Shown here in pieces: positions 1,496 to 8,197 of a DNA stretch of 9,253 bases. The notes under the pieces were generated by a model, which saw nothing but the letters and a program-made list of their open reading frames with translations, did not search any database and was not told the origin of the DNA. Position 1 is the stretch's first letter; the number at the start of each line of letters is the position of its first letter. Source of the DNA: a virus (taxonomy: Duplodnaviria > Heunggongvirae > Uroviricota > Caudoviricetes); the IMG/VR virus record IMGVR_UViG_2713896781_000016. One strand, 5' to 3'. The position numbers and the translations under genes are program-made.

Positions 1496-1688
1496 TTACT
1501 TCTCAGATTCGTAGTCTACGAAGACAGCGACCTCCGTCTGACCGGTTCGGATTCGCACCTCGCAGAGGTCTTTCCTCGTTACCAGTGCCGTCACTATGAC
1601 GGTTAAACAGATGACGATCNNNNNNNNNNNNNNNNNNNNNNNNNNNNNNNNNNNNNNNNNNNNNNNNNNTCGCCTTTTGCTGCTTCAT
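1496..1688 (-). CDS. Hok/Gef-family type I toxin (small membrane toxin), coding sequence interrupted by the assembly gap
   Basis: ATG at 1688 gives MKQQKA, then N-run; after the gap, manual translation of 1618..1499 gives IVICLTVIVTALVTRKDLCEVRIRTGQTEVAVFVDYESEK then TAA at 1498-1496. Near-identical to Gef/RelF as recalled. AAGGAG SD 9 nt upstream of ATG. The track ORF 1503..1745 is a wrong-frame artefact of the N-run. Confidence 0.75.
1620..1669. other. Assembly gap (50 N) inside the hok-family gene
   Basis: Run of n characters. Flanks imply only about 11 nt (MLIAL region) are really missing, so the gap length is a placeholder. Confidence 0.95.
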
Positions 1689-1978
1689 AGCCTGCTTCTC
1701 CTTGCCTTTCGGCACGTAAGAGGCTAACCTACATGTGTTCAGCATGGATTGAGCCTCAGATTAATGTTAAGCGTCTTGCAGGACGCGTAATGTTAACTGG
1801 GGCTTTTCTCTATCTGCCGTTGGTGTTCATGCCCGAGGCAGATAGCCTCAAGCACCCGCTGCAATTCTACTTAACTATCCTTTTCCCGCAAACCGTTTTT
1901 ATCCCCAGCGGCAAATCGAATACACCACCAGCGCCACCGCCATCGCAATTCCTACCGTTGTGAATGCTTCAGGCCAGG

Positions 1979-2536
1979 TCATTGATTCACCTCCTGCGGC
2001 GGTTCTGGTAGCGACATCCAGTGGGTTGCTTGCCTAAGATCATTACCCGGACTAACTGCTATACCTCCGCGCCGGAACGTGCCTCCGAGATAGCGTGCGG
2101 AATATATTAATGGCCCAGCCTCGCTATCGATATTCATCGAAATAAGCACGTTCTGGCTCTTTTCAGGCATTCGCTCAGTACAGCTTATCCAGCCATCCAG
2201 AGTTATCGGAGATCTGGTTGACGTTTCCGAGATTTCCCGAAAATTGTTGGTTGACGAATTCTTATTTTCCCGAAAGTTTCCGGCCTGAAGCATGGCGACG
2301 CGGCAGGCGTTCCAGCCATCAGCATATGTTTTAGTTACACCGTCGAGATGGCAGGTAAGCAAATCCATTTCATCAGGCACTACCATTGCTATCGGCTCTG
2401 CTTCCAGTGATGCCAGCGCGATACGAAACACATTAGCCAGCAGGCTGTCTGAAGACTTGTTATCGTGCGCCGAGTCGCTCAGGAAGCCTGTGATGTATGA
2501 TTTAATCTCCGCGCGTTCTCTGGTAATAGTGCTCAT
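1979..2536 (-). CDS. DUF551-like prophage protein (185 aa)
   Basis: C-terminal GWISCTERMPE...ATHWMSLPEPP matches the DUF551 hallmark (W..P.PP) from memory; ATG at 2536, 1 nt after the stop of the upstream small ORF. Confidence 0.65.
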   Translation of the reverse strand: MSTITRERAEIKSYITGFLSDSAHDNKSSDSLLANVFRIALASLEAEPIAMVVPDEMDLLTCHLDGVTKTYADGWNACRVAMLQAGNFRENKNSSTNNFREISETSTRSPITLDGWISCTERMPEKSQNVLISMNIDSEAGPLIYSARYLGGTFRRGGIAVSPGNDLRQATHWMSLPEPPQEVNQ

Positions 2537-2537
2537 A

Positions 2538-2756
2538 TCAGTTTTCCTTATACGGATTAATTTTATTGTGCAGTGCGCTGAATGATTCCCATGTCACATC
2601 GGTATATAGCTCAATAACTGGTTCAAATGTCCTTCCAATTATCCAGACCAGTAATAGCGGGGATATCGGTATCATCAACACTATAAACAGAATGAAAAAC
2701 AGAAACTCTGTTGTTCTGCTCTTTCGTGGGTAATTTTTTTCTAAATAATGTTTCAT
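2538..2756 (-). CDS. Small single-pass membrane protein (72 aa), unknown function
   Basis: Hydrophobic stretch FLFFILFIVLMIPISPLLLVWII flanked by charged residues; ATG at 2756; coupled to the downstream DUF551-like gene. Confidence 0.5.
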   Translation of the reverse strand: MKHYLEKNYPRKSRTTEFLFFILFIVLMIPISPLLLVWIIGRTFEPVIELYTDVTWESFSALHNKINPYKEN

Positions 2757-2783
2757 TTCTTACCGCCCTTTCGGGCGGCCTCC
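2757..2783 (-). promoter_or_regulatory. Structured translation initiation region: GGAGG, stable GAAA-tetraloop hairpin, then start codon
   Basis: Minus-strand RNA: GGAGG (plus 2783-2779), stem CCGCCC/GGGCGG (plus 2778-2763) with GAAA loop, then UAAGAA AUG. Linear SD-AUG spacing is about 22 nt, about 6 nt if the hairpin is looped out. Confidence 0.4.
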
Positions 2784-2883
2784 TGATGTTCTGAGGGTGC
2801 AGGAATCCCTCCGGTTAAGGATTTAATAAAAATCGTTTCTGATTTAAATCTTCAGTATTTAGTTGTTAGTTGGTTTATCGCCT

Positions 2884-3195
2884 TTATGCTTCAGCCTTAT
2901 TTCGCAACCAGACACAAACCGGGCCATCTTCCGTATCATGAATGGAACCAATAAACCAGCCATCGCCCTCTGGTCGTTCCGGTTCCCATGCAGAAATATC
3001 AGCATCACACGCATCAAGGTCAGCACATCCTTCATCTCTGAAGCAGAGGACGTATTGAAGATTATTTTCCTCCATCCAGGCGTTAAACTCTTCCGTTGAA
3101 ATATATTCCCGACCATCACAGAATTTTTCATATTCAGGATGTGTCCAGTAGCCATATCCGTCACGAACTACCGGCATTTCTTTAATTTTACTCAC
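2884..3195 (-). CDS. Hypothetical acidic protein (103 aa), GTG start
   Basis: ORF track 2884..3195; first codon is GTG at 3195-3193 with GGAGG 6 nt upstream; overlaps upstream gene stop by 8 nt. Asp/Glu/Cys-rich; no family recognised. Confidence 0.5.
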   Translation of the reverse strand: MSKIKEMPVVRDGYGYWTHPEYEKFCDGREYISTEEFNAWMEENNLQYVLCFRDEGCADLDACDADISAWEPERPEGDGWFIGSIHDTEDGPVCVWLRNKAEA

Positions 3196-3415
3196 TGTTA
3201 ACCTCCTGCAACGCTACACGATACGCCTTCTTTATCCACGCCTTACTGCCATATAATTTCGTCTTCATAATAAACACACCTGCACGACTCGCCGATATCC
3301 CCGGACAGGTTAACAGCACAGCATCCACCACACGGTTATGCTTCCGAAACTCCATTACAGTACTGCTGATAACCACCTGCCCCACCGGGCCGTAATCCTG
3401 ATACAGGATTTTCAC
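3188..3415 (-). CDS. Hypothetical small protein (75 aa), GTG start coupled to upstream stop (GTGA)
   Basis: GTG at 3415-3413 overlaps TGA of the upstream gene (3414-3412); AGGAGG 7-9 nt upstream. No family recognised. Confidence 0.45.
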   Translation of the reverse strand: MKILYQDYGPVGQVVISSTVMEFRKHNRVVDAVLLTCPGISASRAGVFIMKTKLYGSKAWIKKAYRVALQEVNSE

Positions 3416-6370: not shown

Positions 6371-6796
6371 TCAATGTACTGCCACAGCATTTCCTGCCGG
6401 GCCACCACGGTTCATCTGATTGAAACCGGCGATTGCCACTGCGACAAAATCATCAGCGTCTCTCACCAGTCGCTCCCGCGTCTCCACCAGCTCCCGAAAA
6501 TAAGTTGAACTGTGGCTGCGCATTCTGGCCACCAGCAAAGGTGGCATTGCCTTTTCGATCGCTGGTAACAACGCCTGAATTTTTTCAACTGCATCAGGGG
6601 TGTCTTTCTCTATCCAGCGGAAAATTTTCTGGGTATTGCGAGCCAGGGCTTCCGGATGGCTGTCGTCATACAGTTCCGGGAACGTCATACCCAGTTCGAA
6701 ATACGCTTTGGTAATCTTCGCAGTCGGTACTTTTTCGCCGTCCGGATGCGCCCAGGCATTCATCGCCATGCGGATGTGTTCATGCTTGATTTTCAT
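6371..6796 (-). CDS. YdaT-like protein (cII-analogous position), 141 aa
   Basis: Internal ATG at 6796 gives MKIKHEHIRMAMNAW..., matching the YdaT N-terminus as recalled; G-rich SD upstream. The track N-terminal extension to 6868 looks non-coding. Confidence 0.7.
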   Translation of the reverse strand: MKIKHEHIRMAMNAWAHPDGEKVPTAKITKAYFELGMTFPELYDDSHPEALARNTQKIFRWIEKDTPDAVEKIQALLPAIEKAMPPLLVARMRSHSSTYFRELVETRERLVRDADDFVAVAIAGFNQMNRGGPAGNAVAVH

Positions 6797-7022
6797 GAAT
6801 CCCCCCTTGGTTAGAAGGCGGATTATGATCAGAATCGGGAATGACAACCGTCGGTATGTGTAACTCATATTTGAGCGCCCCGGCAGTGACTGCCTGAATT
6901 AGCAACGCCCATTTCCACGGAACGTCTTCCCCCCACATGCTGACTGTGGTTTTTGACGTTCCTAGAGCGGCGGCTGTTTTAACAACTCCGCCAAAATAGC
7001 CTAATACTTCTGATTTTTTCAT
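6780..7022 (-). CDS. Cro/YdaS-like HTH regulator (80 aa)
   Basis: ATG at 7022 with GGAG 9 nt upstream; MKKSEVLGYFGGVVKTAAALGTSKTTVSMWGE is a Cro/YdaS-type HTH. Divergent from the repressor across a 91-bp operator region; 3' end overlaps the YdaT-like start by 17 nt. Confidence 0.8.
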   Translation of the reverse strand: MKKSEVLGYFGGVVKTAAALGTSKTTVSMWGEDVPWKWALLIQAVTAGALKYELHIPTVVIPDSDHNPPSNQGGIHENQA

Positions 7023-7050: not shown

Positions 7051-7114
7051 AGTTTAATAATCAAAACCAAAGAAAGTCAAGAAACAAAACCATCTGTGTT
7101 TTAAAATCAAAACA
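7051..7114. promoter_or_regulatory. OR-like operator region with two GTTT-N8-AAAC palindromes (7051-7068 and 7097-7114) and a possible leaderless PRM (-10 TAAAAT at 7102-7107)
   Basis: aGTTTaataatcaAAACc at 7051-7068 and TGTTTTaaaatcAAAACA at 7097-7114; the latter abuts the repressor ATG at 7114, which has no SD. Confidence 0.5.
7052..7080 (-). promoter_or_regulatory. PR-like promoter for the cro operon (-35 TTGACT at 7080-7075, 17-bp spacer, -10 TAAACT at 7057-7052)
   Basis: Read on the reverse complement; same -10 hexamer as the PL-like promoter; overlapped by an operator-like palindrome at 7051-7068. Confidence 0.5.
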
Positions 7115-7752
7115 TGAACAAGCAAACAATATCTGAACGCATAACCCAACGTATGCATGCGCTAAACTTGAAAGGCAAAGACCTTGTCAATGCCACTGGC
7201 GCATCAAAAGGCTCCGTAAGTCAATGGATGAACGGTGGAGGAGCGCCGTCCTCGCGTTACATAAGTTCACTGGCAAAGATATTGAAAGTAAACGAAAATT
7301 GGCTTCTTAATGGAGGAGAGTTAAATACAGGTGATTCGCTTGATCTATCTTTACCGCCGATAAAAACGGTTCCGCTACTATCACTTCAGCAGGCAGCAAG
7401 CTGGAGTGATTATATGAAAAATTCCTCAATAACCTCTTGTGTGCAGCTTGTCGGAGAAATCCCGGCCAATACCTTTGCTGTTGTTCTAGAGAGTGACAGT
7501 ATGTCGACATCTGGTGGTGGAGTTTCCATCCCAAATGGTTCAACAGTTTTTGTTGATCCCGATCGAATCGTACAACCAGGAAATATTGTCCTTGCCTTAC
7601 CCAAAGGGACCACAACGCCTGTCATTCGCAAACTGGAGATAGAAGGGCCGGATATTCTTTTAGTCCCCACGAATCCTCGCTACCCTTCAATTATGCTGGA
7701 TGATCTATCTTGCATATTGGGAGTATGCTTTAAAATTCAACAAGATATTTAA
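7114..7752 (+). CDS. CI/LexA-like prophage repressor: N-terminal XRE-type HTH plus C-terminal S24 peptidase domain
   Basis: 212 aa; N-terminal ISERITQRMHALNLKGKDLVNATGASKGSVSQWMNG; C-terminal DSM serine motif and VIRKL lysine consistent with an S24 Ser/Lys dyad. Confidence 0.9.
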   Translation: MNKQTISERITQRMHALNLKGKDLVNATGASKGSVSQWMNGGGAPSSRYISSLAKILKVNENWLLNGGELNTGDSLDLSLPPIKTVPLLSLQQAASWSDYMKNSSITSCVQLVGEIPANTFAVVLESDSMSTSGGGVSIPNGSTVFVDPDRIVQPGNIVLALPKGTTTPVIRKLEIEGPDILLVPTNPRYPSIMLDDLSCILGVCFKIQQDI

Positions 7753-7865: not shown

Positions 7866-8044
7866 TCATTCATTCCCTCACCCCGCCCCACAGAATGCAG
7901 GGCAATACTTCGAGTTACCAGGCAGTGGTCAGGGGTTAAGTAGCCAGCCCGAGGCGTAAGAACATGACGGCAGGGTTCAACTTTAATAACTATGCAGCAG
8001 GTTTTTGTTCCGCTACCCCGGCGTTAAGGGGAAATGAGGTCAGC

Positions 8045-8197
8045 ATGGATACTATCGATCTTGGCAACAACGAATCTCTGGTATGTGGCGTGTTTCCCAA
8101 TCAGGACGGCACGTTTACCGCGATGACGTATACCAGAAGCAAAACGTTTAAAACTGAAGCTGGCGCGCGTCGCTGGTTAGCCAGAAACACTGACTGA
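8045..8197 (+). CDS. Small early-left protein (50 aa; alternative 77-aa form from ATG 7964), possibly YdaF/DUF1391-like
   Basis: ATG at 8045 with GAGG 5 nt upstream; MDTIDLGNNESLVCGVFPNQDGTFTAMTYTRSKTFKTEAGARRWLARNTD. Stop overlaps the next candidate start (TGATG). Family resemblance is recalled, not verified. Confidence 0.45.
   Translation: MDTIDLGNNESLVCGVFPNQDGTFTAMTYTRSKTFKTEAGARRWLARNTD

Follow-up and report, generated by a model that had tools for sequence, protein, structure and literature searches.

The window studied here is a stretch of DNA of 9,253 nucleotides (nt) from the Caudoviricetes record IMGVR_UViG_2713896781_000016, and it is 100% identical to the E. coli O145 chromosome NZ_CP028379. 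Belonging to a Rac/lambdoid-type prophage, it contains a DUF4014/DUF551 gene pair, in the leader of which a hairpin stands between the Shine-Dalgarno (SD) sequence and the start codon. All the features of this locus lie on the minus strand, which the preliminary description of the window did not state. The stop of an upstream gene encoding a hypothetical protein of 103 amino acids (aa) (PHROG 1372; 2884..3195), at position 2884, sets the start of an intergenic region of 127 nt (2757..2883), which is followed by the 72-aa DUF4014 gene (2538..2756). The product of this gene matched PHROG 1832 and, over its full length, the DUF4014 family of Pfam (PF13198; residues 1–72 on profile positions 1–72, E 1e-24, 87.2 bits against a cut-off of 23.2). 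A single run of about 24 residues (F18–G41) in it is hydrophobic, with an N-terminal segment of net charge +3 and a C-terminal tail of −2, consistent with a single transmembrane helix in a predicted N-in orientation, and its C-terminal LHNKINPYKEN sequence is conserved. The TGA stop codon of the DUF4014 gene is separated by one base (2537) from the ATG of a 185-aa open reading frame (ORF; 1979..2536), the SD of which (AAGGA) lies within the 3' end of the DUF4014 gene. The N-terminal part of the 185-aa protein (..ALASLEAEPIA..) is Ead-like, and its C-terminal part holds a DUF551 domain (PF04448; residues 115–181, E 5e-20, 72.5 bits against a cut-off of 22). Coordinates, Pfam matches and hydrophobicity agree with the preliminary description of this locus, namely a 127-bp gap, a 72-aa single-pass membrane ORF and a 185-aa DUF551-like gene starting 1 nt further on.

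The leader of the DUF4014 gene has the order AGGAGG-CCGCCC-GAAA-GGGCGG-UAAGAA-AUG, so that the succession of GGAGG, a CCGCCC-GAAA-GGGCGG hairpin and AUG reported previously can be read directly at 2784–2754 of the minus strand. The SD sequence AGGAGG (2784–2779) abuts the hairpin (2763..2778), which is composed of a 5' arm (2778–2773), a GNRA tetraloop (2772–2769) and a 3' arm (2768–2763) and contains six G-C pairs; the last G of the SD (G2779) can pair with U2762, adding an optional seventh pair. The spacer UAAGAA (2762–2757) is A-rich, with no SD-like motif, and the AUG (2756–2754) lies 6 nt beyond the stem, which holds neither the AUG nor the SD, except for the last SD base in the G-U pair. 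The distance from G2779 to the A of the AUG (A2756) is 22 nt, well beyond the approximately 13 nt that are usable directly. With the hairpin looped out, only 6 nt are left between the SD and the AUG, or 5 nt if G2779 and U2762 are paired.

Folding predictions for the hairpin alone gave −12.4 kcal/mol with six pairs and −14.4 kcal/mol with seven, and the 51-nt initiation region had a z value of −4.1, with none of 200 shuffled sequences folding as well. The hairpin predominated among the predicted structures. In the ensemble fold of a 100-nt segment, the stem bases and the spacer U-6 were paired (unpaired probability of at most 0.07) and the spacer bases A-5 to G-3 were open (unpaired probability above 0.9), with the caveat that A-2, A-1 and the AUG were mostly paired (unpaired probability 0.10–0.39) in a predicted weak downstream hairpin. 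The leader is included in a conserved intergenic core of about 60 nt and constant length (AATCCTTAACCGGAGGGATTYCTGCACCCTCARAWCATCAGGAGG plus the hairpin; 2762..2823), which is common to hundreds of prophages in which both flanks vary. This core also holds two SD-like and three anti-SD-like tracts, and its 5' half may fold as AAUCCUU/AGGGAUU. A first hairpin in the core, either GAGGG/CCCUC or AAUCCUU/AGGGAUU, is no more than possible; its variants break the pairs or leave wobbles, and none is compensated. An upstream ORF running through the hairpin to the conserved UAA/UAG was discarded because, in the gene-abutting context described below, the upstream stop is in another frame.

DUF4014 genes were sampled by protein similarity, with no use made of the hairpin, and this yielded 82 loci (2 on genome contigs and 80 on viral contigs); the scan of genome contigs, with a single protein, gave only the 2 loci and no species breadth. 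Most of the 82 loci had the same SD and hairpin, with a 6-nt spacer. Two upstream contexts were found, the intergenic core as in the window or a position directly after the stop of an unrelated gene, in which GATTAATGTC runs into AGGAGG. Both contexts join exactly 5' of [A/G]GGAGG, and the downstream modules join just 3' of the stem. Of 5426 complete E. coli genomes, 2339 (about 43%) carried the element at a length of 73 nt, with up to four copies per genome. The 21-mer GGAGGCCGCCCGAAAGGGCGG was found in at least 120 stretches of viral contigs, and the cassette also stood ahead of genes other than DUF4014. An A/U-rich spacer with no SD separated the stem from the start codon in DUF4014 genes (6 nt), in those for DUF7167 proteins (7 nt), in genes for Ead-like MTELTKE/MAELTKE proteins (8–9 nt, with ATG or GTG starts), in those for MQEIKE proteins (9 nt) and, in an unrelated context on one contig, in a P2-like small terminase gene (10 nt). 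Antiterminator Q-family genes had an 11-nt spacer containing an SD of their own (TGGAGATAATAATG). As judged from these sequences, the conserved unit is the SD plus hairpin rather than the gene, and it heads at least four unrelated accessory-gene families. The terminase case is located at about position 11455 of contig L120 (IMGVR_UViG_3300009036_000333), where the same 24 nt of TCAGGAGG plus hairpin recur 10 nt before the gene (Pfam Phage_term_smal), and it may reflect either horizontal transfer or convergence.

The hairpin and a proximal SD were almost mutually exclusive. Among the unique upstream sequences of three families sampled by protein (DUF4014 and two more), all 48 leaders with the hairpin lacked an SD motif in the spacer, whereas 38 of the 42 sequences without the hairpin had a canonical proximal SD, and three of the four exceptions lacking both correspond to hairpins broken by IS1 insertion or rearrangement. 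IS1 was observed immediately 5' of the hairpin in one contig (L477) and inside it in two others (L473 and L478), with loss of the SD or of the 5' arm, and in Rac-SA53 (L205, 2652–3417) IS1 is just downstream of the element. A few of the sampled loci and all the more distant DUF4014 homologues were hairpin-less, including 933W L0067, epsilon34 gp27, ES18 gp39, g341c gp23 and D6 orf103. These five have a canonical GGAG or GGGGGAG 6–7 nt before the start, with the gene tightly coupled to the preceding one, and the hairpin-less homologues overall have an ordinary SD 5–8 nt from the start. The hairpin-less DUF4014 arrangement is GGAG, 6 nt and ATG, and the hairpin-bearing arrangement is GGAGG, the hairpin, 6 nt and ATG; the spacers of 6–10 nt across the cassette families likewise correspond to normal SD-start spacing. 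In a generic scan of all the loci examined for an SD followed by a hairpin, 4–10 nt and a start codon, only this cassette and T4 gene 38 recurred.

Few cases of a split ribosome binding site are known, and they comprise T4 genes 38 and 25 and the thrS/rpmE-type leaders. The T4 gene 38 leader, read directly, is AAGGAG-AGGGGC-UUCG-GCCCUU-CUAAAU-AUG. As in the cassette, the SD abuts a G+C-rich stem of 6–8 bp with an extra-stable tetraloop, the hairpin reduces a distance of 22 nt to 5–6 nt, the spacer is A/U-rich, and the site, within a phage operon, comes immediately behind an upstream gene or a gap. The two differ in their loops (UUCG in gene 38 and GAAA in the cassette) and have unrelated stem sequences, and the T4 site belongs to one gene, whereas the cassette is common to several unrelated genes and to a large share of E. 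coli genomes. In T4, the spacing between the SD and the AUG is brought by the hairpin from 22 to 5 nt in gene 38 and from 27 to 11 nt in gene 25; mutations destabilizing the structure lower initiation, the two genes being treated together, and the reporter and probing work is detailed for gene 25, with lacZ fusions and dimethyl sulfate (DMS) probing (PMC3014915). Such sites have been termed noncontiguous or split (PMC7297116). Gene 25 resembles the cassette in that a hairpin between the SD and the AUG gives a workable distance, and its arrangement is found in close relatives and not in distant ones, which parallels the contrast between the hairpin-bearing E. coli prophages and the hairpin-less homologues of Salmonella and Stx phages. 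However, it spans 27 to 11 nt at an intercistronic junction, serves one essential baseplate gene and has been verified by lacZ fusions and DMS probing.

The DUF4014 leader is predicted to be a further case of this already known arrangement, and the geometry shared with T4 gene 38, together with the exclusivity of hairpin and proximal SD, supports the earlier suggestion of a structure-dependent start of the kind found in some T4 genes. With moderate confidence, we propose that the DUF4014 gene is most probably translated from a split ribosome binding site of the T4 type. This site would form part of a portable 24-nt cassette, which is probably also a recombination junction. In the mechanism envisaged, the GNRA-capped hairpin of 16–18 nt would fold and be looped out of the ribosomal mRNA track, placing the AGGAGG at an effective distance of 5–6 nt from the AUG instead of 22 nt, and the downstream DUF551 gene would be translated by ordinary coupling, given the 1-nt gap and the internal SD. 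We infer that ribosomes would reach over the folded hairpin to the upstream SD and that this structure would raise translation. The cassette is nearly identical everywhere, and for this reason it probably also serves as a homologous-recombination junction for the exchange of gene cassettes.

Several observations weigh against this interpretation. In the predicted fold with the intergenic core, the SD is partly paired with upstream CUC or UUCCUG, the first four SD bases having a mean unpaired probability of about 0.3, whereas it is predicted to be free in the gene-abutting and P2-like contexts; the other folds of the leader gave comparable pairing of the SD. The 21 nt of the SD and hairpin were identical at a mean of 20.85 positions between DUF4014 genes that are about 81% identical in coding DNA (about 72% at third positions). 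However, conservation is just as high over the entire 60-nt core, and recent spread by recombination therefore explains the conservation of the cassette equally as well as selection. In the stem, the commonest substitutions turn C into U and so leave a G-U pair in place (CCGCCU, CCGUCC, CUGCCC and GGGUGG), the loop variants are all of the GNRA type (GAGA and GGCA), and the closing G-U pair alternates with A-U where the SD is GGAGA, other SD variants being rare (GGAGT or GGAAG). Nevertheless, some G-to-A changes in the stem break pairs, and persisting pair-breaking variants (GGGCAG, CCACCC/AGGCGG and CCGCCA/GAGCGG) leave it with only −4.6 to −6.6 kcal/mol. Three protein-based samplings, unbiased as to the hairpin, and an RNAalifold analysis of 62 unique cores yielded no compensatory double substitution, divergence being too low to test the structure; covariation is uninformative about the stem because the latter is almost invariant. 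The Q-family genes have their own SD within the spacer (TGGAGATAATAATG, as above), so that initiation does not have to depend on the hairpin wherever it occurs. Finally, a literature search found no mention of DUF4014 or of the hairpin sequence.

A wider form of the proposal, which we put forward tentatively and regard as rather doubtful, is that the 24-nt cassette may be a self-contained split ribosome binding site acting, in lambdoid and Rac-type prophages, as a uniform plug ahead of whichever gene comes first in an interchangeable accessory cassette, driving translation and at the same time supplying the homology for exchange. If true, this would account for the occurrence of the 24-nt cassette in about 43% of complete E. 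coli genomes, in some of them as several copies, and also ahead of a P2-like terminase gene.

Recombination also provides the first of the competing explanations. Lambdoid mosaicism involves boundary or linker sequences at the junctions between gene modules, and the SD plus hairpin might be mainly such a linker, its position before a start codon being a by-product and the first gene being translated weakly or without an SD. Like lambdoid boundary sequences, the cassette is a short, near-identical stretch (21–24 nt) with unrelated modules on its upstream and downstream sides, and it can be duplicated on either side of a gene cassette: in several contigs (L094, L115, L149 and L158), two copies about 1064 bp apart bracket DUF4014 and the genes for 87-aa, 47-aa and 118-aa proteins, as expected if this block had been inserted or exchanged by recombination at the element. 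The conservation and constant length of the entire 60-nt core, the SD brought by the Q family and the clustering of IS1 insertions at or inside the hairpin are also in keeping with a linker. However, the cassette differs from boundary sequences in having a defined SD and tetraloop hairpin at a fixed distance from the next start, which suggests a selected function in expression. A linker would leave unexplained why four to five unrelated families start 6–10 nt past the stem without an SD when their hairpin-less relatives have one, and why GGAGG is kept in both upstream contexts. As a feature of the cassette's evolution, a role as a recombination linker has good support, and it agrees with the split-site proposal, since both can hold; as the sole explanation it fails on the SD exclusivity and we consider it unlikely.

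We find it improbable that the hairpin acts on the RNA apart from initiation, as a stabilizer or processing barrier, as a site of pausing or factor-dependent termination, or as a boxB-like GNRA regulator site. In many contigs of unrelated phages, the identical 16-nt stem-loop is found without a preceding G and ahead of a T-run, resembling an intrinsic terminator; N-type peptides bind hairpins of the GNRA type; and the element lies at a punctuation point of the operon, directly upstream of Q in some phages. By contrast, the lambdoid hairpin always stands after GGAG[G/A/T] and before TA[A/G], an A-rich stretch and ATG, and a T-run never follows it. An intrinsic terminator was rejected, as there is no U-tract on either strand, the stem being followed by UAAGAAAUG on the minus strand and by CCUCCUGAUG on the plus strand, and in a scan of 1800–3400 for promoters and terminators, terminator-like sites were absent and nothing resembling a promoter lay within the gap. 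A stem of 6–7 bp is too short for RNase III, which excluded a processing site for this enzyme. A lambda-type nut site was likewise set aside: such a site has a boxA about 8 nt upstream of a 5-bp boxB with a GNRNA pentaloop, whereas the cassette has a tetraloop on a 6–7-bp stem and no CGCTCTTA-like boxA at that spacing, and the window ORFs scanned included no family resembling N, an arginine-rich protein. An Rfam scan of 2400–3100, at E values of up to 10, gave only matches at chance level (best E 0.15, 21 bits against a gathering score of 45). In one of the contexts, moreover, the hairpin is only 9 nt past the upstream stop and the rest of the core is missing.

The remaining alternative, tight control of a potentially toxic product as raised in the preliminary description, would make the hairpin a translation brake keeping a small membrane protein low, as a stable structure (−14 kcal/mol) at −7 to −22 within the 30S footprint and an SD predicted to be partly paired in the intergenic context might suggest, but it is very unlikely, since the SD and the AUG are both outside the stem, the cassette also heads genes for the non-membrane DUF7167, Ead-like and terminase proteins, the DUF4014 genes of other phages have strong unstructured SDs, and nothing in the analysis points to toxicity. 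A helix sequestering the SD or the AUG was rejected on the same anatomy, only the last SD base being able to pair.

Confirmation of a split site at the DUF4014 gene would indicate that the arrangement is general and transferable, rather than a T4 curiosity, and would connect a signal for translation with how prophage mosaicism works. Gene callers and predictors of translation rate that penalize a long SD spacing or nearby structure would then misjudge such starts, and the cassette would constitute a compact natural part for synthetic biology. The practical gain from the genes themselves would be smaller, the pair being ordinary accessory prophage cargo.

The 72-aa ORF is conserved, as the preliminary description required for its interpretation to stand, with DUF4014 homologues found in 152 loci. 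Conservation of the pair across prophages, suggested there as a check, held for the short junction and not for the partner. In 148 of these loci the next start lies 1 nt past the DUF4014 stop; the two Salmonella phages and one other contig have 3 nt, and a single locus that is probably disrupted has 29 nt. The junction sequence is conserved (..AAGGAAAACTGA(T/A)ATG). The downstream partner was an 87-aa protein in 52 loci, a DUF551 protein of the window type in 47 and an HNH endonuclease in 24, the remaining loci having other Ead-like N-terminal proteins with or without DUF551. Neighbours of the DUF551/EaA type recur in distant phages (epsilon34 gp27-gp26 and g341c gp23-gp22). Because the partner differs between loci, DUF551 is a frequent but not obligatory downstream partner of DUF4014.

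Some DUF4014 proteins are labelled as a "sugar / O-polysaccharide acetyltransferase inhibitor", which can be traced to an annotation copied from epsilon15 p46 into g341c gp23, and PHROG 1832 bears the label "released from the phage upon host infection". Both labels seem to have been passed on from one annotation to another, with no experiment in their favour visible; no support for the name "acetyltransferase inhibitor" was found in a literature search that did not cover the epsilon15 genome paper. The small O-antigen-modifying proteins known as Gnarl (PMC12373910) were also considered and have no shown link to DUF4014.

The surroundings of the pair were also annotated. An S24-type repressor gene is located at 7114–7752 on the plus strand, and the minus strand carries P22-Cro-like, YdaT-like, replication-initiator-like and DnaC/IstB-like genes, followed by DUF1627, a helix-turn-helix protein and two small hypothetical genes, and then by the gap and the gene pair. 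Downstream of the pair are a hok/mok locus, part of which is masked by N, and a BOF/YgiW gene; DUF968, RusA and DUF1133 lie further downstream, in the matching full record. The order of the genes around the pair therefore places it in the early-right operon, within the accessory, nin-like part. At the position of cII is a gene (6371–6868, minus strand) that matches the YdaT_toxin family, and the first gene past the repressor (7964–8197, plus strand) is a DUF1391 (YdfA-like) gene. The immunity region is Rac/Qin-like and not lambda-like, as judged by the gene content, because no N-like antiterminator was seen.

The hok/mok-type toxin locus is directly downstream of the pair (1503–1745, minus strand); it corresponds to Hok/Gef in the matching record, and the run of N extends over approximately 1620–1670. 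An unannotated hydrophobic ORF of 27 aa (MTWPEAFTTVGIAMAVALVVYSICRWG; 1899–1982, minus strand) has an ATG that overlaps the DUF551 stop (ATGA), with a GGAGG 7 nt upstream, and is missing from the RefSeq annotation. It is kept in frame in more than 150 loci, with 55–100% aa identity and behind differing upstream genes, and its SD is nearly always of the GGAGG type, with GGGGG in one variant. This ORF is probably a real small membrane-peptide gene.

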